Of a stretch of 64,000 nt of DNA, positions 18,050 through 38,080 are shown piece by piece; the stretch's first letter is position 1, and every line of letters begins with the position of its first letter. The notes under the pieces were generated by a model. That model saw only the letters and a list, made by a program, of their open reading frames with translations. It ran no database searches and was not told where the DNA came from. The position numbers and the translations under genes were made by a program. This DNA comes from an uncultured Candidatus Bathyarchaeia archaeon (GTDB lineage: Archaea > Thermoproteota > Bathyarchaeia > TCS64): contig CAZPMB010000002.1 in NCBI GenBank assembly GCA_964587735.1, positions 1,736 to 65,735 of the forward strand. Direction: 5' to 3'.

Positions 18050-18106
18050 ATTCGGTCGTTAGACGTTCTTTTTTACCCGTTGAAGGGTGTCTTTAAAACG
18101 ATTCCC

Positions 18107-20410: not shown

Positions 20411-20629
20411 GAAGGATCTTAGAGGGACAAGGATATTGACTGCTCAGAGTCTCAGAGCTCCATTTACGATATGTAATGAGGATCTACTTCTCTGCGCGTG
20501 ATAACTGCACAAAATTCCGCTATTAAACTGGCGTATATGCTAGCATTAAAAGCCCTTTACTGGACTCCTTGCCCTCCGTCACCCGTAGGATTTATCCATC
20601 GCCATATATCATGGAAGGGGAGGATACCC

Positions 20630-21118
20630 ATGGTACCCATAGATGCCGTTGTCGATATCAGCAAGTCGGATGCCCGCTTCCTCCGCAGGCTCGCCGCGGA
20701 GATGGGCGCTTCCGACCTGAGCAAGTGCTTCCAGTGCGGCGTCTGCGTCGCCAGCTGTCCCGTCAGGGAGATCGAGGCGGAGTTCAACCCCAGGCGGATC
20801 ATGAAGCTGGCGAAGCTCGGCCTGAAGGACATCGTCCTCGGGAGCGATTTCATCTGGCTGTGCTCCATGTGCTTCATGTGCCACGAGCGCTGCCCCCAGG
20901 ACGTAAGGCCGCCCGAGGTTATGACGGTCCTGAGGAACATCGCCGCGAAGGAGGGCATTGCGCCGCCTAACCTGATGAAGCTCGTCGAAGTGCTCTCCGA
21001 GAACGGGAGGGTCTACCCACTCGACGACTTTACGATGGACGAAAGGCAGGACAGGGATCTACCCGAGGTAGAGTCCAAACCAGGGTTCGTGATGAAGATA
21101 GCAGGGGCGGGGAAATGA
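20630..21118 (+). CDS. hdrC: Heterodisulfide reductase subunit C
   Basis: Two CxxCxxC...CP ferredoxin-like motifs (CFQCGVCVASCP, CSMCFMCHERCP). ATG at 20630 preceded by GGAAGGGGAGG. The track ORF starts upstream at 20498. Confidence 0.8.
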   Translation: MVPIDAVVDISKSDARFLRRLAAEMGASDLSKCFQCGVCVASCPVREIEAEFNPRRIMKLAKLGLKDIVLGSDFIWLCSMCFMCHERCPQDVRPPEVMTVLRNIAAKEGIAPPNLMKLVEVLSENGRVYPLDDFTMDERQDRDLPEVESKPGFVMKIAGAGK

Positions 21119-21990
21119 GGTACGCCCTGTTCCTCGGCTGCACCATACCGGCCAGGCAGATGAACTACGAGCAGTCGGCCCGGACTGTAGCGAAGGCGCT
21201 GGGAATCGATCTGGTCGACGTCGACTTCGGTTGCTGCGGCTTTCCGATAGAGCCGGTAGACGAGGTAAAGGCCCTTTCCATGGCCGCTGTGAACCTCAAG
21301 AAGGGGAAGGAGAAAGGGCTCGATATCGTCACCCTGTGCTCTGCCTGCGGCGAGATGCTTACGAAGGCTGAGGAGGTCCTGGAGAAGGACGAAGCCATGG
21401 GAAAGAGCGTCAACGGCGTCCTCGGCAAACAGGTGGGCACAGAGTACAAAGGGGAGAAGCCCCGCGTCGTCCACTTCGCCAGGATGCTCTACGAGGACAT
21501 CGGTAGAGAGAAGATAAGAGCTCTAGTCAAGCGCCCGCTCCAGGGGCTGAAGATAGCGACCCACCCCGGCTGCCACTACGTGAGGCCCTCCAGCCTCAGC
21601 GGCGGATTCGACGACCCCGAGTTCCCCCACAGCCTCGACGAGCTCGTCGAGGCCACGGGCGCAGAGGCTGTAGACTATATGGGCAAGGAGGACTGCTGCG
21701 GGGGGAGCATCTTGGCCGTGAGGGAGGATGTCTCGAAGGCGATGACACGGAAGAAGCTAGAGGCGCTGAGCGGGAAGGTGGACGCGATGGTGTTAATCTG
21801 CCCGTTCTGTGGGATCATGTACGACAGGTACCAGAAGCTGATGGCCGACGAGCTGGAGAAGGAGTACAATGTCCCAGTGCTCTACTACCCTCAACTCCTG
21901 GGTCTGGCCCTTGGAATTGACCCTGAAAAGCTAGGTTTCGACGTCAACTCCGTGAGGGTTGACGGGGTTTTAGAGAAGGTGGGTGTCTGA
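21115..21990 (+). CDS. hdrB: Heterodisulfide reductase subunit B (two CCG domains)
   Basis: FGCCGFP and EDCCGGS CCG-domain motifs. MRYALFLGCT start. Confidence 0.85.
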   Translation: MRYALFLGCTIPARQMNYEQSARTVAKALGIDLVDVDFGCCGFPIEPVDEVKALSMAAVNLKKGKEKGLDIVTLCSACGEMLTKAEEVLEKDEAMGKSVNGVLGKQVGTEYKGEKPRVVHFARMLYEDIGREKIRALVKRPLQGLKIATHPGCHYVRPSSLSGGFDDPEFPHSLDELVEATGAEAVDYMGKEDCCGGSILAVREDVSKAMTRKKLEALSGKVDAMVLICPFCGIMYDRYQKLMADELEKEYNVPVLYYPQLLGLALGIDPEKLGFDVNSVRVDGVLEKVGV

Positions 21991-24313
21991 GTTGGCGTTG
22001 GGTGTTTTCATCTGCAAGTGCGGAGGCAACATCTCCGGGACCGTGAACTGCGAGGAGGTCAGGGACGCCGTCAAGGACATGGATGGGGTGACGACCGCCC
22101 AGGTAACCGAGTTCCTCTGCTCGAAGCCTGGGCTCCAGCTGATCAGGAACGCTATCCAGAGGAGGAAGCTGGACAGGGTCGTCGTGGCGTGCTGCAGCCC
22201 CCATATGCACGAGAAGATGTTCCAGAACGTTGTCGAGGAGGAGGGGGTGAACAGGTACCGCTTGGTCCACGTCAACCTGAGGGAGCACTGCAGCTGGGTC
22301 CACGAGAAGGGCGCCACCGAGAAGGCCGTCAACCTCGTGAAGGGAGGGGTGAGGAGGGCGCTCACCCTCGAGCCCCTCGAGGGAAAGGAGGTTGAGCTCT
22401 GCAGGGATGTCCTAGTCATCGGGGGCGGGGTCGCGGGCATAACAGCGGCTCTGCAGCTCTCCGAGGGCGGCTTCAAGGTCAACATGGTGGAGAGGAGGCC
22501 TAGCATCGGGGGCCGGATGGCCCAGCTGAGCAAGACCTTCCCCACCCTCGACTGCTCCCCGTGCATACTGAGCCCCAGGATGGCGGAGGTAGAGAACGAC
22601 AAGAACATCACCCTCTACACGGGGGCAGAGGTAATTGGCGTGACAGGAGGCCCCGGCAACTACAAAGTCGCTGTCAAGCAGAAGGCGAGGGGGGTCGACC
22701 TCGACAAGTGCCTCAAGTGCGGGCGCTGCTCATCGGTCTGCCCGACCGAGGTCCCGAACGAGTTCGAGGAGGGGCTGTACAGCCGGAAGGCGATCTACCT
22801 CCCCTTCCCGCAGGCCGTTCCATCCTCCTACGTCATAGACCTCGAGAACTGCAAGAGGTGCGGCAGCTGTGTTGAGGCGTGTCCTGCCAAGGCTGTCAAC
22901 CTCGACGACGAGGACAAGACGATCGAGCTCGACGTGGGGGCGATCGTCGTCGCCACCGGATTCGACCTCATCGACGATGCGAGGCTCAAGAGCTATCACC
23001 CGGAGCACTCCGGCGTCGTGAACGCCCTCCAGGTGGAGAGACTGATTGAGAACGAGCTCACCGAGGGCAAGGTGCTGATGACGAAGGGCGGCGAAAGGGT
23101 GAAGGGCATAGCCTACGTGCTTTGCGCCGGGAGCCGTGACCCCCACAGGGGGGTCTCCTACTGCAGCGCTGTCTGCTGCCCCTACTCGATAAAGCAGGCG
23201 ATCCTGCTGAAGAAGTTCCTCCCCTACCTGAAGATCTACATCTACTACACGGACATGAGGATGATCGGAAGGGGCTTCGAGGACTTCTACAGGGACGCCA
23301 GGGAGAAGGGCATAATCTTCATCCACGGAAGGCCAGGCGAGGTGACCCCTCTACCCTATGGAAATCTCGAGATCCTGGTGGAGGACATCGACACAGGCAT
23401 AATGTTCAGGAATGAGGTGGAGCTGGTCGTTCTCTCCTCGGCGATGATCCCCTCGGCAGGGACGGCGGAGCTAGCCTCCAAGCTCAGCATCGCCCTCGGG
23501 GAGGACCTCTTCGTCGCCAGCAAGCACGTGAAGCTTGACCCGATCTCGACGCTCAGGGCAGGGATCTTCGCCGCAGGCGTCGCGACCAACTGTAAGGACA
23601 TCCACGACTCCGTCATTGAGGCGAGGGCCGCGGCATCCCACGTCGCAAACTTCCTAGGAGAGGGGAGAATGAAGCTCGACCCCTTCAAACCCACGGTCGT
23701 GGGAGAGTGTGACGGGTGTGGCCTCTGCGTCGAGGTCTGCCCGAGGGGAGCTGTTAGCGTGAAGGGGTTCTCCCCAGTGATCGATCTAGTATCCTGTAAC
23801 GGCTGTGGTGCCTGCGTCTCGGCATGCTCGACGGGGGTGCTCAGGCTCCCGAACTACACAAGGGAAGCCATACTCGAAGAGGTCAGAGGACTCGTCGAAG
23901 GAGCCAAAGACGAGGTCGTCGTAATCGGCTTTTACGACGACAACATCAGTTATACAGCCGCTGACAACGCCGGGACAGCGCGGATCCACTCCCCCACGAA
24001 CATGAGGATCATTAGGACCCCCTCCACGGCTATACTCGACAGGGACACGATACTCAAATCCCTCGGTTATGGGGCGGACGGGATAATGATCTGCGAGGTC
24101 GAGGGGAGCCACGAGGAAAAGCTCGCAGAGAAGCTCGTTGACGAAGTGAGAGGGGAACTGGAGAGGCTCGGCTTGGAGCCCGAGAGAGTGTACCTGAAGC
24201 CGATGGTGCTCCCCATCTTCAAGGTGCTGCCCCAGTTCATCGACGATTTCACCAACACTATCGGGAAACTGGGAAAAATACCGGAGGACAAGCGGGAGAA
24301 AATTCTTGGGTAG
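21983..24313 (+). CDS. hdrA: Heterodisulfide reductase subunit A with a C-terminal Cys-less MvhD-like domain
   Basis: N-terminal Cys domain (FICKCGGN), FAD GGGVAGITAA, inserted and C-terminal 2x[4Fe-4S] ferredoxins. Residues from about 640 align to MvhD with the Cys ligands replaced. Confidence 0.85.
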   Translation: MSELALGVFICKCGGNISGTVNCEEVRDAVKDMDGVTTAQVTEFLCSKPGLQLIRNAIQRRKLDRVVVACCSPHMHEKMFQNVVEEEGVNRYRLVHVNLREHCSWVHEKGATEKAVNLVKGGVRRALTLEPLEGKEVELCRDVLVIGGGVAGITAALQLSEGGFKVNMVERRPSIGGRMAQLSKTFPTLDCSPCILSPRMAEVENDKNITLYTGAEVIGVTGGPGNYKVAVKQKARGVDLDKCLKCGRCSSVCPTEVPNEFEEGLYSRKAIYLPFPQAVPSSYVIDLENCKRCGSCVEACPAKAVNLDDEDKTIELDVGAIVVATGFDLIDDARLKSYHPEHSGVVNALQVERLIENELTEGKVLMTKGGERVKGIAYVLCAGSRDPHRGVSYCSAVCCPYSIKQAILLKKFLPYLKIYIYYTDMRMIGRGFEDFYRDAREKGIIFIHGRPGEVTPLPYGNLEILVEDIDTGIMFRNEVELVVLSSAMIPSAGTAELASKLSIALGEDLFVASKHVKLDPISTLRAGIFAAGVATNCKDIHDSVIEARAAASHVANFLGEGRMKLDPFKPTVVGECDGCGLCVEVCPRGAVSVKGFSPVIDLVSCNGCGACVSACSTGVLRLPNYTREAILEEVRGLVEGAKDEVVVIGFYDDNISYTAADNAGTARIHSPTNMRIIRTPSTAILDRDTILKSLGYGADGIMICEVEGSHEEKLAEKLVDEVRGELERLGLEPERVYLKPMVLPIFKVLPQFIDDFTNTIGKLGKIPEDKREKILG

Positions 24314-24431: not shown

Positions 24432-24876
24432 CTACTCCAGTTCTCGTTTGATCATCTTTATGAGCTTCGGCATAGCCACCTGAACCTTCTCAGTTAGATC
24501 GCTGCTGAACGACTCCACATCCTGGGCCTCAACGGCCAAGATCACGATCTTCCCCGGCATCTCATAGGGGTAAAGCTGCTTCCCCAGCTTCAATATGCCG
24601 GGGAGATTCAAGCCATGGGACTGGCCGAAATCGGACTCTACCAGCTCCTCGGGTTCCAGCCTGTGGATAGTCCCGGGTTCGGCGCCCGTCGTTGTTGCAT
24701 CGATGATGATGACCCTGTTTCGGTTCCTGATGTGGTCCAGTAGGTCGATATTCGCAGTGGAAAGGTCGACGGCATCGACCTCAGGCATCTCCTCCTTCAG
24801 GATCTTTACGACATGTATCCCAACGCCGTCGTCAGCCCGGAGGAGGTTGCCTATGCCAATGACCGCGTTCCTCAAC
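24432..24876 (-). CDS. Hydrogenase maturation endopeptidase (HycI/FrhD/HybD family)
   Basis: GIGNLLRADDGVG motif. Likely TTG start at 24876 overlapping the mvhA TGA stop (TTGA). The track ORF extends further upstream in frame. Confidence 0.75.
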
Positions 24877-26335
24877 TCAGGTTCCTTTCGAGCCTCTTGT
24901 ACAGACTGCCCCTGCTGTCGTAGATCTCCACAGCCAAGGGCATCTGGCCGGGAAGGCTGTGTGTTGAGCAGGCGAAGCATGGGTCGTATGCCCTGAAGGC
25001 CATCTCCACCTTGTTGAGGAGGCCCTCGCTCACCTTGCCTCCCTTGATGAGACCACTCGCGGCATCTCTAATAGACACGCAGATGGGCGCGTAGTTATTC
25101 GTGGTTGCTACTATCAGATTCGCCTTCTCCACGAGGCCCTCGCTGTCCAACTTGTAGTGGTGGTAAAGGGTACCCCTCGCTGCCTCGACTACGCCAACCC
25201 CTTCCCCGGGCTTCCCCACTGGGTTCCTCAGGCCCGTCCCCGTTATCTCCGGGTCGGTCGCTAGCTCTAGTGTCCGCTCCGTAGCGTAAAGCAACTCCAC
25301 AAGCCTCGCCCAGTGGAAGGCGAGGGTCGAGTTTACAGGCTTCCCGCCGAGGGTCTTGTACATTCGCTTGTACTCCTCGTCGGCGAGGGGCGTCGCCATG
25401 CCTTCGGCGGCGTTTAGCCTGCCGAGGGGACCGACGCGGTAGATTCCGCTGTCCTTGCCATCCTTCAGCCCCTTCCAGCCGACGTCCTTCAGGTAGGTGA
25501 ACTTCGAGTAAGTCCAGGGCTCCACGTGCTCGGAGATGTAATCGAGGTAGTCCTTCGCCTGGAACCTGTCGTGCTCCCTCCCCTTCTGGTCGGTCACGCG
25601 GATGTCCCCGTCGTAGAAGTTGACCCTGTTGTTCTCGTCGACGAGGCCCATGTTGTAGGTCTTTAGCTGATAGGGGTCGCTGAGGATCAGGTCAACGTAG
25701 CCCTTGTTCCCGAGGACAACGTCGTTGAACACTCTGAGGGTGAACCTTGCGAACTCGATGGAGGAGCGGGCCATCTCCTCTATCTCCTTCCTCTCCTCCT
25801 CGTTCAGCCCCTTCGAGACGCCTCCGGGGAGACCACTCGTCGGGTGGGTCGCCTTCCCGCCGAGGATCTCGATGACCCTCTGTCCATATGCCCTGTGCTT
25901 AATCACCTCCTTTCCGACATCGAGGCCTACCTTCTTCAGGACGCCGAATATGTTCCTCTCTGTTGGCGGGGCATCCGGCCCAACGACGAAGTCTGGGGCC
26001 CCCAGAAAGTAGAAGTGGAGAGTGTGATCGTAGACGTAATAGCCCGAGTACATCAACTCCCTGAGCTTCTTTGCCGTCGGCGTGGGCGCGACATCGTATG
26101 CTGCATCTAGGGCTTTTGTGGAGGCCATGTGGTGTGCCACCGGGCATACGCCGCAGATCCGTGGCGTTATGATGGGCATGTCCTCGGCCCTCCTACCCTC
26201 GCAGAAGCGTTCGAAGCCTCTCAGCTCGGGGACTTGTAGGTACGCGTTCTCGACGTTCCCCTCGTCATTGAGGAATATGGCGATCTTGCCGTGGCCCTCG
26301 AGCCTAGTTATCGGGTCTATGGTGACGGTCTTCAT
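24872..26335 (-). CDS. mvhA: [NiFe] hydrogenase large subunit, MvhA-like (F420-non-reducing type)
   Basis: N-terminal RICGVCPVAH (RxCGxC) and C-terminal DPCFACSTH (DPCxxCxxH) Ni-Fe ligand motifs. 487 aa. Confidence 0.85.
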   Translation of the reverse strand: MKTVTIDPITRLEGHGKIAIFLNDEGNVENAYLQVPELRGFERFCEGRRAEDMPIITPRICGVCPVAHHMASTKALDAAYDVAPTPTAKKLRELMYSGYYVYDHTLHFYFLGAPDFVVGPDAPPTERNIFGVLKKVGLDVGKEVIKHRAYGQRVIEILGGKATHPTSGLPGGVSKGLNEEERKEIEEMARSSIEFARFTLRVFNDVVLGNKGYVDLILSDPYQLKTYNMGLVDENNRVNFYDGDIRVTDQKGREHDRFQAKDYLDYISEHVEPWTYSKFTYLKDVGWKGLKDGKDSGIYRVGPLGRLNAAEGMATPLADEEYKRMYKTLGGKPVNSTLAFHWARLVELLYATERTLELATDPEITGTGLRNPVGKPGEGVGVVEAARGTLYHHYKLDSEGLVEKANLIVATTNNYAPICVSIRDAASGLIKGGKVSEGLLNKVEMAFRAYDPCFACSTHSLPGQMPLAVEIYDSRGSLYKRLERNLS

Positions 26336-27300
26336 CTTTTGATCCTCCTGTTCATGATGGCAACCGGGAGCCCGTATTTATAAAAGGTCCCGACAGGGTC
26401 CTTCAGCTGCGACATGAGCGCCTCGGGGTCGAAGCCCTCCTCCTTCTCCTCGGCGAGGCCCAGGACGGTCGAGAGGGCCGAGATCATCGCAGTCCCCTGC
26501 TCGATGGCCTCGGGGCAAGGGCCCCCACAGCCTGTACAGGGCATGTTGGCGTTCAGGCATCGGGACTCGCAGCCCCCCCTAGTGGCTGGACCCATGCAGA
26601 CGATGCCCTGCTCGAGGAGGCACTTCTCGGGCTCGGGTTCGAAGTCGATGATCCTCCTGATCCCGGCAACTTTCTTCTCCTCCCTGGTCCTAGGGCACTC
26701 GTCGCAGACCGACTTCTCAGGGGCTAGAACCGCACCCTTCGGCGGGAGGTTCCCACTCGCTATGGCCTGGACAGCCTCGACTATGAGCCCCGGCGCCGGA
26801 GGGCACCCCGGCAGATAGTAGTCCACGTCCACGACTTGGTCCAGCGCCATGACAGTGTCGTAGAACTCAGGGAGCGTGAGGGTTCCCTCCTTGGCTTCGA
26901 ACTTGGTCAGTGGGACAAGGTTCTTCTCATTCTCCGTAGAAGGCGACCGCAGGTAGGCCCTCTCGAATACCTCCTCCCGGTCGGCGACGTTGGCGAGCCC
27001 TGGAATGCCGCCCATGTGGGCGCATGAGCCGAAGGCGACGAGGGCCTTCGCCTTCCTCCTGAGCAGCTTGGCGAGGTGATCCTGCTCCTCTGTGCGCACC
27101 GCTCCGTTGAAGAAGCAGACATCCATGAAGCCATCCGGCATCGCCTCCACATCCTTGTATTTGACGTCCATCGCCACAGGCCAGAAGACTACTTCTGCTA
27201 TCTCCAAAACGTCGAGTATCTTCTCGTCGATGTCAAGGACGGCGATCTCACAGCCCCCGCAACTAGCAGCCCAGTAGAACCCGAACTTCAGCTTACCCAA
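26332..27300 (-). CDS. mvhG: [NiFe] hydrogenase small subunit, MvhG-like
   Basis: AASCGGCE proximal-cluster motif and multiple downstream Cys clusters. 322 aa. 4-nt overlap with mvhA. Confidence 0.8.
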   Translation of the reverse strand: MGKLKFGFYWAASCGGCEIAVLDIDEKILDVLEIAEVVFWPVAMDVKYKDVEAMPDGFMDVCFFNGAVRTEEQDHLAKLLRRKAKALVAFGSCAHMGGIPGLANVADREEVFERAYLRSPSTENEKNLVPLTKFEAKEGTLTLPEFYDTVMALDQVVDVDYYLPGCPPAPGLIVEAVQAIASGNLPPKGAVLAPEKSVCDECPRTREEKKVAGIRRIIDFEPEPEKCLLEQGIVCMGPATRGGCESRCLNANMPCTGCGGPCPEAIEQGTAMISALSTVLGLAEEKEEGFDPEALMSQLKDPVGTFYKYGLPVAIMNRRIKR

Positions 27301-28165: not shown

Positions 28166-28678
28166 TCAGCCCTCCTCCACGAGGCCGAGGAAACCCGTCT
28201 TCCTCATTATCTTCTCGACCTCTTTGGCGTCTGGCTCGGGTGCGGGGGGCAGGTCCTCGTCCTCCCTCATCTCGTTCTGGAAGTCGTCTATCTCGTAGAT
28301 GTACCCAATCTCCGCCAGGGTGTTCATCAGCGCCCTGTGGGTCGGGTGGATTATCCCCCCCTTCACCGCCAGCTTCCGGAGCGCCGAGACTATCTCCGAG
28401 ATCCTAACCTGCTCCGGGCAGCGCTCGTAGCAGGTGTAGCACCCTGCGCAAAGCCACACGGTGTCGCCGACGAGCAGCCTTTCCTTCTGGCCGTAGATCG
28501 CTAGCCGCGCGATCTGCCTGGGCCTGAACGCCTCGACCCTCATGGCGATGGGGCAGTCGGCGGTACAGGTCCCACATTGGTAACAGAGCATCAGCTTCTC
28601 GGCGCCTGGTATCTGCATTAGGCGCTCCCTGAAGCCCTTGTCTGCCTGGGACATCCGGATCTCCTTACGCTCGGTCAA
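28166..28678 (-). CDS. hdrC: Heterodisulfide reductase subunit C
   Basis: CYQCGTCTADCP and CAGCYTCYERCP motifs. Confidence 0.8.
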   Translation of the reverse strand: MTERKEIRMSQADKGFRERLMQIPGAEKLMLCYQCGTCTADCPIAMRVEAFRPRQIARLAIYGQKERLLVGDTVWLCAGCYTCYERCPEQVRISEIVSALRKLAVKGGIIHPTHRALMNTLAEIGYIYEIDDFQNEMREDEDLPPAPEPDAKEVEKIMRKTGFLGLVEEG

Positions 28679-29121
28679 CTTACTCGCCCTCCGGCAGTGA
28701 TGACCTCCAACGGCCTTAGGGGGCTAGGTCCCAGCCTCTTCATGTCTGCGACCATCTCCTTCATCACTCGGGCAAATTTGTCCCCCTCCGCGGCAGAGAT
28801 CCATTCCAGCCTTAGACGTTCCGGCTCAAGCCCGAGCTGAGACATCAGCCTCTTCAGCATTGCGATCCGCCTCTTGGCCTTCAGATTACCGGTAATGTAG
28901 TGGCAGTCGTTGGGAGGGTGGCAGCCGGCGACTAACACTCCGTCTGCCCCGTCCCTGAACGCCTCCAAGATGAAGGCGGGGTGGACCCTCCCGCTACACA
29001 TCACCCTTATTACCCTTAGGTTTGGAGGGTACTGGAACCTGCTGACCCCGGCGAGGTCGGCCCCGGCGTAGCTGCACCAGTTGCAGAGGAACCCAACTAT
29101 CCTCGGCTCGAACTCGGTCAT
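28675..29121 (-). CDS. mvhD: MvhD (methyl-viologen-reducing hydrogenase delta subunit, [2Fe-2S])
   Basis: MTEFEPRIVGFLCNWCSYAGADLAG ... MCSGRV ... GCHPPNDCHY canonical MvhD cysteines. ATG at 29121 overlaps the stop of the upstream hdrA fusion (ATGA). Confidence 0.8.
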   Translation of the reverse strand: MTEFEPRIVGFLCNWCSYAGADLAGVSRFQYPPNLRVIRVMCSGRVHPAFILEAFRDGADGVLVAGCHPPNDCHYITGNLKAKRRIAMLKRLMSQLGLEPERLRLEWISAAEGDKFARVMKEMVADMKRLGPSPLRPLEVITAGGRVS

Positions 29122-32120
29122 GCCTTCACCTCCATGAGGGCGGCCCTCACCTGAGAGAGTATCTCGTCGTCCGTGAAGTGGCCGACCGTTATGGCCCCAG
29201 ACGGGCAAGTTGAGGCGCAGACACCGCAGCCCTTGCACAGCTCCTCTACGACGTGGGAGTGAACCTTACCCTCCTCCTCGACCATCTCGATGGCGTTGAA
29301 CTCGCAGACGCCTTCGCACATCCTGCAGCCTGAGCAGAAGTCCTCGTTAACGCTCGCAATGGCACCCTCCATCTCCAGCGTCTCTTTCGAAAGTATCGTC
29401 ATCGCTCTAGCGGCTGCACCGCAAGCCTGGCTTATGCTCTCGTCAATCGACTTCGGCCCGTGGGCCATCCCACAGAGGAAGACGCCGTCGGTGGCGAAGT
29501 CGAGGGGCCTCAGCTTCATGTGGGCCTCCAAGAAGAACCCATCCTTGCTGAGGGGTACCTTCAGAAGCCCTGCGATCCACCGGTTGTCGGGAGAGGGCAG
29601 GACCCCGGCGCTTAATACCACGGCCTCCGGCTCCATGATCACATTCTCTTTAAGTACCGGGTCCAAGACCTCGACTCTGAGACCGCTCTCTCTTGTGACC
29701 CGAGGCTTGTGCTCGTCATCGTACCGGATGAAGATGACGCCCTTCTTCGCGGCGTCCCTGTAGAAGTCCTCCTTGAATCCATAGGTACGCATGTCCTTGT
29801 AGAGGACGTAGATATCCGCGGCCGGGTTTACCTCCTTTACCTTGAGGGCGTTCTTCACGGCGTCGGTACAGCAGATCCTGGAGCAGTAAGGGCGCTCATC
29901 GCACCTGGAACCGACACACTGGATCATGACCACAGAGCTCGGTTTGAACCCATTCGCTAGTTTCTCCTCTAGCTCAAGCTGGGTCATCACATCCTCATCG
30001 GAGCCATAGAGGTACTCCTTGGGCTCGTACTCGACACCACCGGTGGCGATGACGACGACCCCGTGCTTGACCACCTCCTCGCCCTTCTTGCTGAGCAGCG
30101 TGGTCTCGAAGTTACCAATGTAGCCGCCCACGTCCTCCACCTTCGCGCCTAGGTGGACGTGGATCTTCTTGTTGCCCCTCACCCTGTTCACGAGCTCCCC
30201 CAGCTTCTTCTGAGGGTCAATTCCGCCAAGCGCGAATCTTAACCTCCTCAGGTTGCCACCTAGCTCGCTCTCCTTCTCCACGAGGTGGGTCTTAATGCCC
30301 TGCTCGGCGAGTTCGAGGGCCGCGGTCATGCCCGAGAGGCCCCCCCCAATTACTAGGGCTGCTGGGGTAACCTTGACCTGGGGCTTCTTCAGGGGCTGGA
30401 GGAGCCTGGCCTTGGCGACGGCCATCCTGACCAAGTCCTTCGCCTTCTGGGTGGCCTCCTCTGGCTCCCGCATATGGACCCAGCTGCACTGGTCCCTGAT
30501 GTTCGCCATCTCGAAAAGGTAGGGGTTCAGCCCCGCGTCTTGGAGGGTCGCCCTGAAGAGGGGCTCGTGGGTCCTCGGCGTGCATGAGGCCACTATTACC
30601 CGATTAAGCTTGTGCTCCAGTATCTTCTCCTTGATCTTCTCCTGAGTGTCCTGGGAGCAGGTGTAAAGGTTCCTCTCGGAGTACGCGACGCCGGGCAGGG
30701 TGCCTGCGTACTCTATGACCTCCGGAACGTTAACGACGCCTCCGATGTTGATGCCGCAGTGGCAGACGAAGACTCCAACTCTGGGCTCCTCGCCAGAGAT
30801 GTCCCTCTCGACGGGGTACTCCTCGCTCACAACGAGGGTGCCTCTCACAGAGGCGATCGCCCTCTCCGCCTTAGCTGCGGCCCCACTCGCCTGCGCAACG
30901 CTGTCGGGGATGTCCTTCGGAGAGGCGAATGCCCCGCACACGTAAACGCCTGGACAGGTCGTCTCCAACGGTGTGAAGAGCCCGGTCTTAGCAAATCCGT
31001 GCTCGTTGAGCTCGAAGCCAAGGACCTCGGAAAGCTTCCCAGCGTCTGCCGGTGGGTTCATTCCAACAGAGAGGACCACCATATTGAACCTCTCCCGCTT
31101 CACCTCGCCGTTCTCAACGTAAGTGACGAATAGGTCCTTGGTATCTGGGTCCTGGTCGGTGTGGGAGGCCCTGCTCCTGATGAACCTGACTCCGTGTTCC
31201 TCTTCTGCCCTGGCGTAGTAGTCGTCGAACTCCTTGCCAAAGGCGCGGACGTCCATGAAGAAGATTGAGGGCTTCAGCCCAGGGTTGTGCTCTTCGGCGA
31301 TGACAGCCTCCTTAATGGTGTACATGCAGCAGACGCCGCTGCAGTATGGGTTACCGACCCTCTCGTCCCTGCTGCCAACGCACTGTATAAAAGCAACCTT
31401 CTCAGGTAGCTCGCCATCGGATGGTCTTAGTACAACGCCCCGGTAGGGGCCAGTAGCGCTCAGGATGCGCTCGAACTCGATACTCGTCACGACGTTGGGG
31501 TACCGCCCATAGCCGTACTCTGTGACGATCCTCGGGTCGAACTCCTCAAAGCCGGGGGCGAGGATTATGGACCCGACCTCTAGCTCGACCTCTGAGTCCT
31601 CTTCATCGTAGCGGATAGCATTCGCCTTGCAGACCTCCTTACAGATGCCGCAGCCGAGGCACTTCTCCTTGTCGATAGTGAAGATGAGCGGCACCGCCTG
31701 GGAGTATCGGATGAAGACTCCCCTACGCTTGCTGAGGCCCTCGTTGTACTCGTCTATTGCCGAAGCGGGGCATTTCTGTGCGCAGATTGCGCACCCCGTG
31801 CATTTCTCGGGGTCTACCCTCATCGCCTTCTTTTTGAGAGTCGCCCTGAAGTCGCCCTCCTCCCCCTCCACACTCTTCAGCTCCGAGTAGGGCACGATCT
31901 GGATGTTCGGGTGCCTCCCGGCTCCTACGAGCTTCGGGGCGAGGATGCACATGGCGCAATCATTCGTTGGGAAGGTCTTGTCCAGCTGGGTCATTACCCC
32001 GCCGATGCTCGGCTCCTTCTCCACCAGATATACCTTGAATCCCGAGTCAGCCAGGTCCAGGCTCGCCTGTATGCCGGCTATGCCCCCACCGACGACCATC
32101 ACCGCACCGACTTTCCTCAT
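29118..32120 (-). CDS. hdrA: Tandem HdrA fusion: FAD-domain-only HdrA' fused in frame to a full-length HdrA (1000 aa)
   Basis: Two Rossmann FAD motifs (VVGGGIAGIQAS near the N-terminus; IGGGLSGMTAA near residue 580). The central VFVCHCGINIGG...CSWVH HdrA N-domain lies between them. The two halves are paralogous to the adjacent split pair at 34596..35918 and 32893..34593. Confidence 0.8.
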   Translation of the reverse strand: MRKVGAVMVVGGGIAGIQASLDLADSGFKVYLVEKEPSIGGVMTQLDKTFPTNDCAMCILAPKLVGAGRHPNIQIVPYSELKSVEGEEGDFRATLKKKAMRVDPEKCTGCAICAQKCPASAIDEYNEGLSKRRGVFIRYSQAVPLIFTIDKEKCLGCGICKEVCKANAIRYDEEDSEVELEVGSIILAPGFEEFDPRIVTEYGYGRYPNVVTSIEFERILSATGPYRGVVLRPSDGELPEKVAFIQCVGSRDERVGNPYCSGVCCMYTIKEAVIAEEHNPGLKPSIFFMDVRAFGKEFDDYYARAEEEHGVRFIRSRASHTDQDPDTKDLFVTYVENGEVKRERFNMVVLSVGMNPPADAGKLSEVLGFELNEHGFAKTGLFTPLETTCPGVYVCGAFASPKDIPDSVAQASGAAAKAERAIASVRGTLVVSEEYPVERDISGEEPRVGVFVCHCGINIGGVVNVPEVIEYAGTLPGVAYSERNLYTCSQDTQEKIKEKILEHKLNRVIVASCTPRTHEPLFRATLQDAGLNPYLFEMANIRDQCSWVHMREPEEATQKAKDLVRMAVAKARLLQPLKKPQVKVTPAALVIGGGLSGMTAALELAEQGIKTHLVEKESELGGNLRRLRFALGGIDPQKKLGELVNRVRGNKKIHVHLGAKVEDVGGYIGNFETTLLSKKGEEVVKHGVVVIATGGVEYEPKEYLYGSDEDVMTQLELEEKLANGFKPSSVVMIQCVGSRCDERPYCSRICCTDAVKNALKVKEVNPAADIYVLYKDMRTYGFKEDFYRDAAKKGVIFIRYDDEHKPRVTRESGLRVEVLDPVLKENVIMEPEAVVLSAGVLPSPDNRWIAGLLKVPLSKDGFFLEAHMKLRPLDFATDGVFLCGMAHGPKSIDESISQACGAAARAMTILSKETLEMEGAIASVNEDFCSGCRMCEGVCEFNAIEMVEEEGKVHSHVVEELCKGCGVCASTCPSGAITVGHFTDDEILSQVRAALMEVKA

Positions 32121-32896
32121 TCCGACACCTCCATCGCCGCGTAGATGGGAGAACTCCCTCGTATCTCTTGGACATCAACCCAGCCCAGCTGACGCATCGC
32201 CACTATATGTTCTAGGACCTTTTTGGAGTCAATGCCCAGCTTCTTCGAGAGCTCCTTGACCGAGGAGGGCTCTTGGAGAAGGGAGAGGCGGATCTTCTGG
32301 TGAACATACTCGCTTTCTAAGGCCTCGTCCATCACCTCGTCGAACTCGCCCTTCGCGACAGGCTCCCCATAGATGTTCCCTTCCTTGACGAGCTTCTCCT
32401 CCTTCCCCACAAGGGCCCTGAGCCTGTAGTTCTCAGCAGCAGCCTTCGCCGCCCTGAGGTTGAGAAGCAGCCCGGGGTCCGGTGAGTCGCCGGAGACAGA
32501 TGACGGGCCCAGCCCTCTGACCTTTTCTATGAAAGCTCCTACTTGGTCCGCGAACTTTTGACCCTCTGAGGCGAATATATACTCCAGAGCAAGCCTCTCG
32601 GGCTCGAAGCCTGCCTTCTCCAGTAGCCTCCTCGTAAAGTGGTACTTAGTTTCGACCTGCTCGTGGTTCCTGATGTAGTTGCAGCCGCCGAGTGTGCAAG
32701 TTGTGATCATGACGCCGTCGATCCCCTCCGAGAAGACCCTTAGCAGCATAGAGGGGTCAATCCTCCTACAACACATGACCCGGAGGAAGCGGATATTGGG
32801 GGGGTACTGGATCCTGCTGATCCCAGCCAGGTCGGCTACTGCATATCCGCAACAGTTGCACAGGAAACCTATCAGGCGCGGCTCGTACTCGGTCAT
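32117..32896 (-). CDS. MvhD domain fused to a C-terminal winged-helix-like domain
   Basis: N-terminal 135 aa is canonical MvhD (GFLCNCCGYAVADLAG, MCCRR, TCTLGGCNY). The C-terminal 120 aa carries SSVKELSKKLGIDSKKVLEHIVAMRQLGWV, which is HTH/wH-like. Confidence 0.7.
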   Translation of the reverse strand: MTEYEPRLIGFLCNCCGYAVADLAGISRIQYPPNIRFLRVMCCRRIDPSMLLRVFSEGIDGVMITTCTLGGCNYIRNHEQVETKYHFTRRLLEKAGFEPERLALEYIFASEGQKFADQVGAFIEKVRGLGPSSVSGDSPDPGLLLNLRAAKAAAENYRLRALVGKEEKLVKEGNIYGEPVAKGEFDEVMDEALESEYVHQKIRLSLLQEPSSVKELSKKLGIDSKKVLEHIVAMRQLGWVDVQEIRGSSPIYAAMEVSE

Positions 32897-34593
32897 TTTC
32901 CGGACCTCCCATCCACGGCGGCGAGGATCTGCGCCTCAAGCTGATCGTCAGTGAAGTGATGTATCGTTATGGCCCTCTCGGGGCAGCTTGCTGCACACAC
33001 GCCACAGCCACCGCAAAGGGAGCTATCGGCCCTCGAGATCCCGAGCTCGTCCTTGCGGATTGCGTTGTAGGGGCAGAGCTCTATGCAGATCCCACATCCG
33101 CTGCACTTCTTCTCGTCGATATCGGCGAAAGCCGCCCCCCTGCCTCGTCTGCGACTGAACCTGTTCTCCGCCGCCTTCGAACCGACGCCGAGCCCTTCGG
33201 ATATGCTCTCAACGGCGTCCTTAGGCGCCCGGGCGGTACCGCAAACGTAGACACCCTCTGTCGCGAAGTCTAGGGGACTCAGCTGGTGGGCCTCTTTAAA
33301 GAATCCGAAGGCGTCTAGGGGGAGCCTAAGCATCTCGGACATCTCCTGCGCCCCCTCTGCCGGCACAAGGGGTGTGGAAAGGACTACGAGGTCCGCGTTG
33401 AATTCCATCTCCTCGTTTATCGTTGGACTTAACACCCTGACCGCAACGCCTTCCTCACCTGGCGTCACAATGGGGGGCGTGTCGTCCTTGTACTTGATCA
33501 GCTTCACCCCTTTTCTCTTGGTGTTCAGCTCTAGAGCCGAGGACTCGATGCCGTAGGTCTGGAGGTCTTTGTATACGATGTAGATGTCCGTGTCCCTGCT
33601 CAGATCCCTGAGGATCTGGGCGTTTTTGAGGGCCGTGTTGCAGCAGATCCTCGAACAGTATGGACGCTCCTCACAGCGGGAGCCTGCGCACTGGATCATC
33701 ACAACCGTACGGACCCCGTCCAAGCTCCCGTTCTTCAGCATCTCCTCGAGTTCAAGCTGAGTTATTATCCTCTCGTCCCTACCATAACCATAAAGGCCCT
33801 TGGGTCTGAGTATGTCCGATCCTGTAGCCACGATAATCCTGCCCACGTTGAAGGCCCTCTTTTCAGCCCCCTTTGACTCGACCTCGATGTCGAAGCTGCC
33901 GATGGCTCCTGTTACGGATTTAACCCTCGATGATTTGTGGACCTCGATGTTCGGATTGTTCTCCACCGACCTGAGTAAGTGCTCAAGGACCTCGGAGCTG
34001 TCCCTCATCGTGGGGGAGAGCTTGTGAAGGCTCTTGAGCATACCGCCGAGCTCCGCTTGCTTCTCGACGAGGTGAACGTGGAACCCGAGGTCCGCCAGTG
34101 AGAGCGATGACGACATTCCCGATATCCCACCGCCCATCACGAGGACGTTCGGGTTCTGCTTTACCTCCGGGTCCTCCCAAGGGCTCAGAAGGCGGGCCTT
34201 TGCCACGGCCATCCTCACGAGGCCCTTCGCCTTATCCGTTGCCTTCCCTGGCTCCTCCCTGTGTACCCAGCTGCACTGCTCACGGATATTCGCCATCTCA
34301 ACGAGGTACTTGTTCAAGCCAGCCCTATTGAGGGCCGACTGGAATACAGCCTCGTGGGTCCTCGGCGTACATGCTGCTACGACGACCTTCTCAAGGTTAT
34401 TCTTCCTGATGGCGTCTTCGATCCTCTCTAGCCCGGTTGTCGAGCAAGCAAAGGCGTTCTCTTCGATATGGGCCACCCCAGGAATGCCCTTAGCATACTC
34501 GACCAGTTCGGGCACATCAACTACTCCGCCAATGTCTTTACCACACCGGCAGACGAATACGCCGACCCGTGGACTTGCGACGTTCTCTGACAT
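32893..34593 (-). CDS. hdrA: Heterodisulfide reductase subunit A (full length: N-domain, FAD domain, ferredoxins)
   Basis: VGVFVCRCGKDIGG...CSWVH N-domain, MGGGISGMSS FAD motif, C-terminal CSGCGICIELCP/CGGCGVCAASCP. Confidence 0.85.
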   Translation of the reverse strand: MSENVASPRVGVFVCRCGKDIGGVVDVPELVEYAKGIPGVAHIEENAFACSTTGLERIEDAIRKNNLEKVVVAACTPRTHEAVFQSALNRAGLNKYLVEMANIREQCSWVHREEPGKATDKAKGLVRMAVAKARLLSPWEDPEVKQNPNVLVMGGGISGMSSSLSLADLGFHVHLVEKQAELGGMLKSLHKLSPTMRDSSEVLEHLLRSVENNPNIEVHKSSRVKSVTGAIGSFDIEVESKGAEKRAFNVGRIIVATGSDILRPKGLYGYGRDERIITQLELEEMLKNGSLDGVRTVVMIQCAGSRCEERPYCSRICCNTALKNAQILRDLSRDTDIYIVYKDLQTYGIESSALELNTKRKGVKLIKYKDDTPPIVTPGEEGVAVRVLSPTINEEMEFNADLVVLSTPLVPAEGAQEMSEMLRLPLDAFGFFKEAHQLSPLDFATEGVYVCGTARAPKDAVESISEGLGVGSKAAENRFSRRRGRGAAFADIDEKKCSGCGICIELCPYNAIRKDELGISRADSSLCGGCGVCAASCPERAITIHHFTDDQLEAQILAAVDGRSGK

Positions 34594-34595
34594 AA

Positions 34596-35918
34596 TCAGC
34601 CCCCCCGACCTCCTGTTGCGATTCGGATGTCACTGACTGCCTTCAGCGCCACGGCACTCGCCTCGGTCACCGAGTCGGAGATGTCCCTGGGCCCATGGCT
34701 GCAGCCGCAGACGTAAATCCCCTCCCTAGTGGTCTCCAGGGGACCGAGAAATGGGTCCTCGACCCTAAAAAAGCCAAACTCATCCAAATCAACGCCTAAG
34801 GCTCCAGCGAGCCTGACGTTCTCGAACCTTGGGAGAACAGCAGCCGAGAGGATGGCCATGTCTACCTCCTTCCTCCCTATCTCACCGGTGTCGGTGTTCT
34901 CGTACCAGACGTACAGGTCCTTCGTGATGGGGTTCTCCCTGATCTCTCCGGGCTTGCCCCTGATGTAATCTACGCCGAGCTCATCCCGGGCCCTGTTGAC
35001 GAGACCCTGATAGTCCCTGCCAAAGGCTTTGACGTCTATGTAGAAGACATAAATCTCAGAGCTTGGGTACTTCTCCTTCACCGTGACCGCCTCCTTGGCC
35101 GTGTACATGCAGCATATGCCCGAGCAATAGGGGACGCCCACTCCTTCCCTGTGGCTCCTAGAGCCTACGCATTGGACAAAGGCCACCCTCTTGGCGAGCT
35201 TTCCATCCGACGGGCGCTCCAGCTCGCCGCCTGTGGGACCATACGGAGAGATGAGTCTCTCGAACTCTAGGGATGTGATCACGTTCTCGTACCGGTTATA
35301 CCCGTATTCCCCCATCTCCGTAGGGTCGTACTGCTGAAAACCTGTGGCGATGATGATAGAGGAGGCGTTAAGTGTACTCACCCTCACGCCCTCCTCCAAC
35401 CTGATGGCGTCGACCGGGCAGGCCTTCTCACAGGCCCTGCAGCCGCCGCCCTTGAAGTGATTGCAGGCCCCCTCATCTATTGAGGGCGCGTAGGGAACCG
35501 CCTGGGGAAACGGGATGTAGACGGCCTTCCGGGACTCGAACCCCGTCTGGAAATCGTCAGGGACGGTGGCAGGGCAGATCTCGACGCAGGTACCGCACCT
35601 TGTGCACCTAGATGGGTCTACGTGTCTCGGCCTCTGGACAACCCTCACTGCGAAGCGCCCTTTCGAGCCGTCGACGTCGACGACCTCTGATAGGGTGTGA
35701 ACCTCTATGTTGGGATGCCTATAGCACTCGATCATCTTGGGCTCTAGGATGCAGATGCAGCAGTTCATGGTGGGGAAGGTCTTGTCCAGCTGCGCCATGA
35801 CGCCCCCGACGTAGGGGGCCTTCTCTACGATGTGGACATGGATCCCCTGGTTCGCCAGGCTGAGGGATGCCTGCAGGCCGGCCACGCCCCCGCCTATCAC
35901 TAAGACGCTCCCTTCCAA
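34596..35918 (-). CDS. HdrA-like FAD/ferredoxin protein lacking the HdrA N-terminal Cys domain (HdrA')
   Basis: Starts directly at VLVIGGGVAGLQAS (FAD). Has an inserted 2x[4Fe-4S] ferredoxin (CTRCGTCVEICP; CRACEKACP). 440 aa. Paralogous to the first half of the 1000-aa fusion. Confidence 0.8.
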   Translation of the reverse strand: MEGSVLVIGGGVAGLQASLSLANQGIHVHIVEKAPYVGGVMAQLDKTFPTMNCCICILEPKMIECYRHPNIEVHTLSEVVDVDGSKGRFAVRVVQRPRHVDPSRCTRCGTCVEICPATVPDDFQTGFESRKAVYIPFPQAVPYAPSIDEGACNHFKGGGCRACEKACPVDAIRLEEGVRVSTLNASSIIIATGFQQYDPTEMGEYGYNRYENVITSLEFERLISPYGPTGGELERPSDGKLAKRVAFVQCVGSRSHREGVGVPYCSGICCMYTAKEAVTVKEKYPSSEIYVFYIDVKAFGRDYQGLVNRARDELGVDYIRGKPGEIRENPITKDLYVWYENTDTGEIGRKEVDMAILSAAVLPRFENVRLAGALGVDLDEFGFFRVEDPFLGPLETTREGIYVCGCSHGPRDISDSVTEASAVALKAVSDIRIATGGRGG

Positions 35919-35920
35919 CG

Positions 35921-36802
35921 CTACCCCTCCAGTACCTTCTCTAGCACGAAGTCTATCGGGCTTAGGTTCAGGTCGAGCCCAAGCTTCTCTGGCCCAAGCC
36001 CCATTGCGAGGCCAAGCAGCTGTGTATAATAGAATACCGGTACCTCTAGGGACCTGTCCCCCATTGCTGCTTGAATTGCCCTCTGCCTGTTGTCGAAGAC
36101 CTTAAAGCAGAATGGGCAGACGGTGACAAGGCCATCGAACCCGAACTTCCTTACGGACTGGAGCTTCTCCCCTGCGATGAGAAGTGTGGTCTTTCCTGAG
36201 GCAATCGCCAAAGATGAGCCGCAGCAGTCGGTTTTCTCTGGGTAATCCATCACATCGGAGCCGAGGGCTCTCATCAGGTCATCGAGCTTCTGGGGGTTCT
36301 CCGGGTCGTCCGTATGCTTCAGCTCCCCGCCCCTTATTGCGTGGCAGCCAGGATGGGTCGCGAACTTCAGGCCCTTTATTGGCCTGATCACGCTGGCTCC
36401 TATCGTGTCGACTCCTACGATGTCGTGAAGGATCTCAAGTATGTGTACTATTCTCACGCTCCCCGTGTATGTCAGCCCTTCCTTTTTCAGATCCTTATTG
36501 ATGGAATCCCTAGTCCTCGGGTTGACCTCAAGGTGGTGTTTGGTCTCCGCGAAGGACATGTGGCAACCATTGCAGAGGGGGAAGAGATCCAGTCTTAGGC
36601 CTTCCGCGATCGCCATGTTTCGCGCTGAGAGATAGTACCAAGCCGACGGGTAAACGCTGCTGAATGCCGGGAACCCGCAGCAGCTGGTCCCCTCCATGTC
36701 GACAAGCTCGACGCCGATCCTGGGCAGCACCTCCCTGACCGAGGCCTCGTATCCGAACTGCTCAGTCTGAACTGTGCAACCCGGATAAAACGCGTACTTC
36801 AA
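35921..36802 (-). CDS. hdrB: Heterodisulfide reductase subunit B
   Basis: TSCCGFP and TDCCGSS CCG motifs. Confidence 0.85.
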   Translation of the reverse strand: MKYAFYPGCTVQTEQFGYEASVREVLPRIGVELVDMEGTSCCGFPAFSSVYPSAWYYLSARNMAIAEGLRLDLFPLCNGCHMSFAETKHHLEVNPRTRDSINKDLKKEGLTYTGSVRIVHILEILHDIVGVDTIGASVIRPIKGLKFATHPGCHAIRGGELKHTDDPENPQKLDDLMRALGSDVMDYPEKTDCCGSSLAIASGKTTLLIAGEKLQSVRKFGFDGLVTVCPFCFKVFDNRQRAIQAAMGDRSLEVPVFYYTQLLGLAMGLGPEKLGLDLNLSPIDFVLEKVLEG

Positions 36803-36814: not shown

Positions 36815-37327
36815 CTATGAAAGCTTCTTCAGGTTCTCGTGGAACGCTTCCATGTCCTTAGGCTTCTCCACTGGGGGCAGCCCAAGAGACTTCCTGTCGT
36901 GCCTGCCGCCCTTCCTGGCCCGGACCTGCTGGGGCTCGCCGGAAATCCCTTTCTCCACGACGGTCCTGATGAAGTCATCGTAGCCTGAGGGGTGCTCGTA
37001 GCCCGCCCGGTACGCCAGAGTTCTGAGCACCAGTATAACGTCGTAGGGGGAGATCTGCTCGGGGCACCTCTCCTTGCACTTTAGGCAGGAGGTACAGGTC
37101 CATAGCAACTCCGACTTGAGGAGCTCCCCCAACTTCCCGAGGGAGACCTTCGAGATGAGCTGACGGGGGTTGAACCCTTCGATGTACTTCGACACGGGGC
37201 ACGCTGAGGAGCACTTGCCGCACTGGTCACACACCTCGGCAGTCTCGCTCACGGCCCTCTGGAGCAGTGTGGTGATGAACTCTTCCTGCTGATCCCTGAT
37301 CTCGCCCAAACTAGGTCCCTGTTTCAC
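36815..37327 (-). CDS. hdrC: Heterodisulfide reductase subunit C
   Basis: CDQCGKCSSACP and CTSCLKCKERCP motifs. First gene of the 12-gene minus-strand operon. Confidence 0.8.
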   Translation of the reverse strand: MKQGPSLGEIRDQQEEFITTLLQRAVSETAEVCDQCGKCSSACPVSKYIEGFNPRQLISKVSLGKLGELLKSELLWTCTSCLKCKERCPEQISPYDVILVLRTLAYRAGYEHPSGYDDFIRTVVEKGISGEPQQVRARKGGRHDRKSLGLPPVEKPKDMEAFHENLKKLS

Positions 37328-37597: not shown

Positions 37598-38080
37598 ATG
37601 GTTACGTCGAGGGAGCTCTTAAGCAGGTTAGTCGACGAGAAAAAGCTCACCTACTGCGAAAATTGCGGTATGTGCACTGCCAGCTGCCCCCTCGCTAGGG
37701 CGATCCCAGAGATCTACAACCCAAGAGTTCTTCTGCAGAGGGTGATCTTCGATCTGGACGAACTCATCAAGAGCGAGGAGTTCTGGCTGTGCGCATGGTG
37801 CTACAGATGCACGGAGAGATGCCCCCAGGGCATACAGCCGACAGAGATATTCCTCCTCACCAGGAACTTTGCGGTGGAGAAAGGACACGTGCCGAACAAC
37901 CCCAAGGCGATCATGAGGGAGATCATAAGATCAGGTAGATCGATACCCGTCTTCGAGGACTTCGACGACTGGCGGGAGGACTATGGCTTGCCCCCGATCG
38001 GACCCACCATCTCGAAGGAAGCCCTGGAGGAGCAGAGGAAGATAATGGGAGAAGAGTTCTTGAGGAGGCTACAGGGTTGA
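37598..38080 (+). CDS. hdrC: Heterodisulfide reductase subunit C
   Basis: CENCGMCTASCP and CAWCYRCTERCP motifs. GGGGTGGA Shine-Dalgarno-like sequence upstream. Confidence 0.8.
   Translation: MVTSRELLSRLVDEKKLTYCENCGMCTASCPLARAIPEIYNPRVLLQRVIFDLDELIKSEEFWLCAWCYRCTERCPQGIQPTEIFLLTRNFAVEKGHVPNNPKAIMREIIRSGRSIPVFEDFDDWREDYGLPPIGPTISKEALEEQRKIMGEEFLRRLQG

Follow-up and report, generated by a model that had tools for sequence, protein, structure and literature searches.

The flavin-based bifurcation of electrons (FBEB) that HdrA carries out has a central place in anaerobe energy metabolism, and the canonical enzyme is a symmetric dimer. We analyzed a stretch of 64 000 nt from an uncultured Candidatus Bathyarchaeia archaeon (assembly GCA_964587735.1, contig CAZPMB010000002.1, positions 1736 to 65 735 of the forward strand), in the following called the window, which carries an open reading frame (ORF) of 1000 amino acids (aa) with two HdrA-like halves and, in the same operon, a split pair of genes for HdrA-like proteins of 440 and 566 aa. 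Our analysis suggests that the long ORF probably encodes a type II HdrA, in which an A6-type part and an A12-type part are joined by a conserved linker of ~20 residues, that the split pair would be its unfused ancient paralog, and that the product would be an asymmetric pseudo-dimer with a single bifurcation circuit. All three ORFs had been named in a first reading of the sequence (the original prediction) and are present on the minus strand as claimed there. The HdrA genes, the parts of the fusion and the gene between the fusion and the split pair are:

29118..32120, minus strand: fused HdrA, probably ‘type II’, 1000 aa plus stop
30846..32120, minus strand: N-half of the fusion (residues 1-425), TrxR/FAD domain 1, matching residues 147-510 of the 5odc HdrA
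31947-31958, minus strand: Cys55/Cys58 of the N-half, the CxxC in TrxR/FAD domain 1
31596-31829, minus strand: inserted ferredoxin domain of the N-half, about residues 98-175
30786..30845, minus strand: linker of ~20 residues (426-445), conserved in the family
29121..30785, minus strand: C-half of the fusion (residues 446-1000), with an N-terminal [4Fe-4S] domain, TrxR/FAD domain 2 and a C-terminal ferredoxin
34596..35918, minus strand: unfused HdrA without N-domain, class ‘A6’ type, 440 aa
32893..34593, minus strand: unfused HdrA with N-domain, class ‘A12’ type, 566 aa
32117..32896, minus strand: MvhD-like [2Fe-2S] subunit with a C-terminal winged-helix-like extension, 259 aa

Using BLASTP we observed that residues 5-418 of the fusion align with the 440-aa protein at 46% identity (E 4e-130) and residues 446-995 with the 566-aa protein at 48% identity (E 1e-160), which establishes each half as a paralog of its split counterpart and the first half as HdrA-like. 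The junction, expected at about 30830, was found at residues 426-445 (window 30786-30845). In an alignment of 60 sequences the linker residues R426 and E438 are invariant, and P436, E445, P446 and R447 are conserved to at least 90%. For domain mapping we took HdrA of M. thermolithotrophicus (5odc chain A) as reference: its TrxR core with the inserted ferredoxin (147-510) corresponds to residues 8-369 of the fusion, its N-terminal domain (2-155) to residues 444-597 and its C-terminal ferredoxin (510-648) to residues 855-993. Both this mapping and the Cys alignment bear out that the first half lacks the HdrA N-terminal domain; it also carries the Cys of the TrxR [4Fe-4S] cluster. The second half had been described as a complete HdrA, which holds as far as it has the N-domain, a second GxGxxG motif and, at the C-terminus, the 2x[4Fe-4S] ferredoxin, but TrxR/FAD domain 2 has neither the inserted ferredoxin of ~80 residues (8 Cys) nor the CxxC pair (Cys194/Cys197). 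Two GxGxxG...E motifs and two Pyr_redox_2/FAD Pfam matches are found in the fusion, each half can be aligned with TrxR domains of HdrA, and Pfam gives no match to an FlpD (MvhD) domain in the 1000-aa ORF, MvhD being encoded by a separate downstream gene. The best PDB sequence match of the fusion has an E-value of 8.8e-215. An AlphaFold2 model of the whole chain of 1000 residues is compact (mean predicted local distance difference test, 82.5; predicted template modeling score, 0.85), and in a Foldseek search with this model the strong PDB matches were canonical HdrA chains only (template modeling score 0.73-0.89).

The split pair turned out to differ from its first description. The 440-aa protein, taken to be ‘FAD-only’, contains in its TrxR/FAD domain a CxxC (Cys53/Cys56) and an inserted 2x[4Fe-4S] ferredoxin, as well as four Cys for the TrxR [4Fe-4S] cluster, and it has no N-domain and no C-terminal ferredoxin. 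The 566-aa protein, taken to be a ‘full HdrA’, has an N-terminal [4Fe-4S] domain, a TrxR/FAD domain and a C-terminal 2x[4Fe-4S] ferredoxin, but lacks the inserted ferredoxin domain of ~80 residues with its 8 Cys as well as the Cys194/Cys197 pair. Moreover, the pair does not lie immediately upstream of the fusion, as the 259-aa MvhD-like gene stands in between, and the supposed ATGA overlap of the 440- and 566-aa genes is in fact the junction GGC TGA tt ATG, with a 2-nt spacer and a change of frame. Overlaps of the 4-nt ATGA type are found at the junctions of the 566-aa gene and MvhD (32893-32896), of MvhD and the fusion (32117-32120) and of the fusion and the second MvhD (29118-29121).

To compare cofactor ligands we used 142 N-domain-less (A6-type) and 145 N-domain-bearing (A12-type) units, and observed strict complementarity between the two types. 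The A6-type units have C194/C197 in 94-99% and the inserted-ferredoxin Cys in 100% of cases, with no N-domain and no C-terminal ferredoxin. In the A12-type units the N-domain residues C11/13/46/71 are present in 100% and the Cys of the C-terminal ferredoxin in 99-100%, whereas C194/C197 occur in only 0-2%, and 98-100% of the units are without the inserted ferredoxin. The TrxR-domain cluster (C386/399/403/404) is kept in both. The same pattern holds within the window: the N-half and the 440-aa protein have the CxxC equivalent to Cys194/Cys197, 8 inserted-domain Cys and 4 TrxR-cluster Cys, and the C-half and the 566-aa protein have the N-domain Cys, the TrxR-cluster Cys and 8 Cys of the C-terminal ferredoxin, with D/K or D/E at the Cys194/Cys197 positions (D/K in the C-half of the fusion). 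When both halves of the fusion are summed, all HdrA domains and cluster ligands are present. Together with the compact model, this complementarity supports the idea, already part of the original prediction, of an asymmetric pseudo-dimer. We infer that the halves would be arranged as in the homodimer of canonical HdrA, intramolecularly in the fusion and between two chains in the split pair. Selenocysteine at the Cys197 position was considered and rejected, as both positions have Cys codons in the window.

We scanned one genome per species and collected 80 loci (L001-L080). A G7 homopolymer lies right before the TGA of the 440-aa gene (window 34599-34612, minus strand), and with one more G the reading frames of the 440- and 566-aa genes would be joined (…GGRGGLIMSENV…). 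That either the split or the fusion stems from a frameshift in sequencing or assembly is nevertheless extremely improbable. The split state occurs in 27 loci of several phyla with varied stop codons and spacers, the closest relative (L008, proteins 88-90% identical) has no homopolymer at this site, and gene calling gives the identical 566-aa protein on 5 independent contigs from 4 sources; on these grounds the G7 frameshift was rejected as cause of the split. An artificial fusion is likewise excluded by conservation of length, domain order and linker residues: the best 120 database homologs of the fusion, with 67-100% identity, all have 998-1007 aa, and the 80 loci contain 101 fused units with the same domain order. 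HdrA proteins of more than 900 aa, which the original prediction had proposed to look for, are widespread in other genomes, and from the conservation across relatives we conclude that fusion and split are both real.

The gene order [HdrC HdrB], N-domain-less HdrA, N-domain HdrA, MvhD with C-terminal extension, fused HdrA, MvhD recurs across phyla, namely in Bathyarchaeia, Thermoplasmata and Methanomassiliicoccales, Asgard archaea and some bacteria (a few metagenome-assembled genomes (MAGs) so labelled); the nearest relatives of the fusion are Bathyarchaeia MAGs. For phylogeny we calculated a neighbour-joining (NJ) tree on the concatenated alignment of both halves, rooted on canonical HdrA. Over the concatenated halves the window fusion has a mean identity of 55.1% to the fused genes of Asgard archaea, 58.6% to those of Thermoplasmata and 56.2% to those of bacteria, compared to 46.8% to its own split neighbours. 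Because it is closer to the fused genes of other phyla than to the pair beside it, the fused/split paralogy is, on this sequence evidence, ancient. The tree gives the core fused clade 100% bootstrap and places the split pairs as a grade at the base; four fused sequences that branch more deeply join with 42-51% support. As the split pairs are basal, the event would be a fusion and not a fission, and the fused state is probably derived and appears to have arisen once. The original prediction had spoken of fusion and fission within the operon, and the paralogs are indeed neighbours in one operon. However, a recent duplication in this lineage, followed by fusion or fission, is highly improbable given these identities, the fully supported fused clade above the split grade and the gene order repeated across phyla.

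The observation itself is already established in the field. Chadwick et al. (2022; PMC9012536) reported tandem and fused HdrA paralogs with complementary loss of the N-domain and Cys197, and proposed heterodimers that are self-contained in the fused chains. The low-potential route to the inserted ferredoxin in the canonical dimer includes a contact between Cys197 of one subunit and the partner subunit's N-domain cluster (PMC9012536), and M. maripaludis has a Cys-Sec197 feature situated between this cluster and the FAD (PMC13518236). A survey of archaeal fusions (mSystems 2024; PMC11237513) found fused duplicated HdrA, sometimes joined to MvhD, in Asgard and TACK lineages. The class was then named ‘type II HdrA’ (classes A3/A4) and derived from a single fusion of A6 with A12, two classes of type I (Microbiol Spectr 2025; PMC12054007); according to this paper K409 and E356, which are linked to bifurcation in the canonical enzyme, are preserved in both TrxR domains, and no biochemistry has been done on type II HdrA. 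The statement of the original prediction that such a protein was not characterised fails with regard to description, naming and heterodimer proposal (PMC9012536, PMC11237513, PMC12054007) and holds for structure and enzymology: we found no two-TrxR HdrA in the PDB among sequences or folds. Publications of 2022-2025 already cover the class, its proposed heterodimers and how the fusion arose, and the arrangement is common. Our modest additions are a residue-level complementarity table extended to the inserted ferredoxin domain, an asymmetric conservation of K409/E356 that points to the A6-part flavin as essential, and a split-plus-fused operon architecture conserved across archaeal phyla.

The fusion of the window shows each testable type II feature, i.e. 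two TrxR/FAD domains, an A6-like N-half, an A12-like C-half, E356 and K409 in both, halves that fall into separate clades, and monophyly of the fused forms (core clade 100%). The residue equivalent to K409 is the Lys of CCMYTIK in the N-half and that of CCTDAVK, in the K753 region, in the C-half. As in published type II HdrA (PMC12054007) the protein has ~1000 aa, clusters with MvhD and HdrBC and belongs to a group for which fusion is inferred once. Unlike the surveyed hosts, which are methane- or alkane-metabolising archaea often with FdhB/molybdopterin partners, the host here belongs to the Bathyarchaeia and the partner is an MvhAG-type [NiFe]-hydrogenase, and unlike the published cases an unfused A6/A12 pair is found in the same operon. 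This pair resembles the tandem HdrA5/6 and 12/13 of anaerobic methanotrophic archaea (ANME; Chadwick et al. 2022), where one member carries the N-domain without Cys197 and the other Cys197 without the N-domain, the pattern of our 566- and 440-aa proteins. The ANME pairs differ from the window and related loci, where the N-domain-less gene comes first and the pair is set upstream of a fused paralog.

The 12 genes form a single close-packed operon on the minus strand, transcribed from 37327 to 24432. In addition to the four genes listed above it contains, in transcription order:

36815..37327, minus strand: HdrC-like, set 1, 170 aa, 2x[4Fe-4S], operon gene 1 (Pfam Fer4_17/Fer4_8); a homologous ‘C’ gene has the same position in related loci
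35921..36802, minus strand: HdrB-like, set 1, 293 aa, two CCG domains (Pfam CCG x2, E 1.3e-25)
28675..29121, minus strand: MvhD, set 2, 148 aa from the ATG at 29121; the mechanical ORF runs on to 29238
28166..28678, minus strand: HdrC-like, set 2, 170 aa
27307..28164, minus strand: HdrB-like, set 2, 285 aa, two CCG domains
26332..27300, minus strand: [NiFe]-hydrogenase small subunit, MvhG/VhuG-like, 322 aa (Pfam Oxidored_q6; NCBIfam VhuG 218 bits, below the cutoff of 450)
24872..26335, minus strand: [NiFe]-hydrogenase large subunit, MvhA/VhuA-like, 487 aa (Pfam NiFeSe_Hases; NCBIfam VhuA 413 bits, below the cutoff of 800)
24432..24980, minus strand: hydrogenase maturation protease, HycI family, final operon gene (Pfam HycI, E 5e-18)

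The start of the second MvhD was set at 29121 since its orthologues have 143-147 aa with the same start position; the Pfam FlpD match (E 1.4e-55) begins at residue 47 of the long ORF. All partner genes of HdrA, i.e. HdrB (two CCG), HdrC, MvhD and MvhAG, are present alongside, as in canonical MvhADG-HdrABC (M. thermolithotrophicus 5ODC; also 8RVU, 7BKB, 9SW2). The genes fall into two modules, one with the split pair, the MvhD with winged-helix tail and HdrCB, the other with the fusion, MvhD and HdrCB, and both have one [NiFe]-hydrogenase in common. The dosage of one MvhD and one HdrCB per two-part HdrA was counted in favor of the single-circuit pseudo-dimer.

The chains of canonical HdrA, of ~650 aa each, form a symmetric homodimer in which two circuits are complete, whereas the fusion would have a single circuit and carries a further TrxR/FAD domain that has a cluster of its own. 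The canonical single-chain layout (N-domain, TrxR with Cys197, inserted and C-terminal ferredoxin) is not found in it, as these domains are spread over two TrxR units. Each pseudo-dimer would have one complete bifurcation circuit in place of two. In such an enzyme MvhAG would oxidise H2 and MvhD would pass the electrons to the C-terminal ferredoxin and the N-domain of the A12 part, from where they would arrive at the FAD of the A6 part, taken as the bifurcating flavin. The high-potential electron would then travel via the TrxR cluster to HdrC and HdrB for disulfide reduction, and the low-potential electron via the CxxC and, in trans, the N-domain cluster to the inserted ferredoxin domain and on to ferredoxin. 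In trans, the A12 part would thereby provide both the N-domain cluster and the C-terminal ferredoxin on which MvhD docks, with its FAD domain acting mainly as a structural partner or as an accessory relay.

Several points weigh against this scheme. Both halves of the fusion and both split proteins keep E356, K409, the FAD motif and the TrxR-cluster Cys, and two bifurcation sites have been proposed for type II HdrA (PMC12054007). In NJ trees of single units the deep nodes have weak support (33-55%). We noticed neither mcr nor other genes of methanogenesis in the window. For ANME HdrA3/4, Chadwick et al. describe the domains in the opposite order in their text (PMC9012536); we observed this reversed order, with the N-domain half first, in 0 of the 101 fused units of the 80 loci. 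Finally, the NCBIfam scores of the fusion are below the CoB-CoM HdrA equivalog cutoffs (HdrA 758 bits, cutoff 1400; hdrA_Methbact 711, cutoff 1300; HdrA2 1029, cutoff 1100), and the split proteins score lower still.

The first of these points leads to the main rival, in which both FAD domains are catalytic and each polypeptide has two bifurcation sites, or one bifurcation and one confurcation site. This was proposed in the 2025 paper, where the retained residues are read as two FBEB sites (PMC12054007), and the retention of GxGxxG...E, E356, K409 and four TrxR-cluster Cys in all four units of the window agrees with it. We consider it unlikely, while deserving serious attention. A pseudo-dimer has just a single N-domain cluster and likewise a single CxxC, inserted ferredoxin domain and C-terminal ferredoxin, and only one MvhD and one HdrCB are encoded for it. 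In addition, the dinucleotide motif is kept in every unit, but the flavin-site residues are not: E356 and K409 are conserved to 100% in the N-domain-less units, compared to 86% and 79% in fused C-halves across the family. Among the fused relatives (L001-L080) the equivalent of K409 is lost in ~20% of the C-halves, where T, N or A takes its place, and that of E356 in ~14%, with no change at these residues in the N-half. Such a one-sided loss suggests that the second flavin site is under relaxed selection and points to the flavin of the A6 part as the essential one. A second rival regards the modules as plain electron-transfer flavoproteins that lead from hydrogenase to disulfide or to ferredoxin alone. 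The scores under the equivalog cutoffs would fit modules that do not bifurcate; however, all three canonical arms are kept (input by way of MvhD plus C-terminal ferredoxin; TrxR cluster to HdrCB; CxxC and N-domain cluster to the inserted ferredoxin), as are the bifurcation-linked E356 and K409, and we regard this explanation as improbable.

On another reading, the unfused A6/A12 pair and the type II chain might not be alternatives but obligate partners in one supercomplex, with two non-equivalent pseudo-dimeric HdrA cores, a single hydrogenase and the extended MvhD as bridge. This idea, which we hold to be rather doubtful, is based on the cluster of HdrCB, A6, A12, MvhD with winged-helix tail, type II HdrA, MvhD and, in some loci, HdrCB-MvhGA that is common to Bathyarchaeia, Thermoplasmata and Asgard archaea, and serial bifurcation with a co-located type I HdrA has already been floated (PMC12054007). 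If true, it would mean two coupled bifurcation steps or a switchable route. The importance of the system would rise only if the two modules form one supercomplex or if the enzyme settles the number of flavin sites per HdrA dimer. As natural constructs that would keep only one complete circuit, type II HdrA and the A6/A12 pairs are good material for asking whether the two flavin sites of the canonical dimer act independently, and they are also useful for the study of hydrogen metabolism in uncultured Bathyarchaeia and Asgard archaea.

Two further HdrA fusions are of interest for comparison. For the MetFV-HdrABC-MvhD complex of Moorella thermoacetica (Mock et al. 2014), the review of Buckel and Thauer (PMC5861303) gives an HdrA with 2 FAD, and the passage on Moorella in PMC9012536 describes this HdrA as two fused HdrA domains with complementary loss; going by these passages, the complex is the only purified one reported with such an HdrA. 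Its partner is a methylene-tetrahydrofolate reductase working with NADH and not a hydrogenase, and its likeness to the window is drawn from the published description only. Fused homologs from Firmicutes (L078, L079) have the same domain order as the window fusion. The other case is type Ia HdrA2, an HdrA-MvhD fusion (Methanosarcina acetivorans HdrA2B2C2; PMC5296606), which has a single TrxR domain plus MvhD, whereas the 1000-aa ORF has two TrxR domains and no MvhD domain.

The loci also vary in composition. In some a fused gene occupies the first position too, in L030 up to four units of MvhD plus fused HdrA form an array, and in L057, L068, L070 and L076 (Asgard relatives) the fused HdrA is further joined to MvhD. 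Bacterial relatives carry fused HdrA of ~1480-1514 aa (L060 4504-8946, L067 4456-9000, L079 12540-17006), in which an insertion of ~450 residues lies inside the inserted-ferredoxin region of the N-half; these forms resemble the GltD/NfnB-inserted ‘type III’ or HdrL-like proteins of the literature. In many Bathyarchaeia (L002, L010, L013-L018, L022, L024, L026, L029, L041) the slot of the split pair, upstream of the MvhD with winged-helix tail, is taken by a GltD/NfnB-like flavoprotein of 571-588 aa (Fer4_20 and Pyr_redox_2) whose 2x[4Fe-4S] ferredoxin at the C-terminus is similar to the one in the 566-aa protein, which suggests that an NAD(P)H-linked module was swapped in. Two loci labelled as bacterial, L001 (‘Patescibacteria group bacterium’) and L009 (‘Krumholzibacteriaceae bacterium’), have the full Bathyarchaeia-type operon with 73-84% protein identity to the window, and these contigs are probably mis-binned.

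The 259-aa MvhD consists of an FlpD domain (Pfam, residues 9-130, E 1.9e-39; residues 1-134 match 5odc_D, E 2.8e-38) and a C-terminal extension of ~125 residues with weak winged-helix similarity (ArsR/TrmB/PF0610-like), for which the ArsR/TrmB matches and those to PF0610-like_N/TrmB at residues 200-256 are weak. A long MvhD is found in the same slot in most of the 80 loci and always precedes a fused HdrA, even in the four-unit arrays, and a short MvhD comes after the last fused gene in the related loci.

Around the operon the window contains further genes of the same kind. A third Hdr set (20498-24313, plus strand) is convergent to the operon, a fourth pair of HdrC-like and HdrB-like genes (37598-38967, plus strand) diverges from its start, and hydrogenase maturation genes adjoin the Hdr/Mvh island (14642-19120):

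20498-21118, plus strand: HdrC-like, third set
21115-21990, plus strand: HdrB-like, third set
21983..24313, plus strand: HdrA with C-terminal MvhD (FlpD), third set, 776 aa, canonical architecture
37598-38080, plus strand: HdrC-like, fourth pair
38077-38967, plus strand: HdrB-like, fourth pair, two CCG domains
14642-15718, plus strand: HypD
15713-18049, minus strand: HypF
18107-19120, minus strand: HypE-like

The 776-aa ORF is a type Ia ‘HdrA2-like’ fusion, with an NCBIfam HdrA2 score of 777 bits (below the cutoff of 1100). An extra C-B pair at a position similar to that of the fourth pair is found in the related loci L005, L009 and L011.

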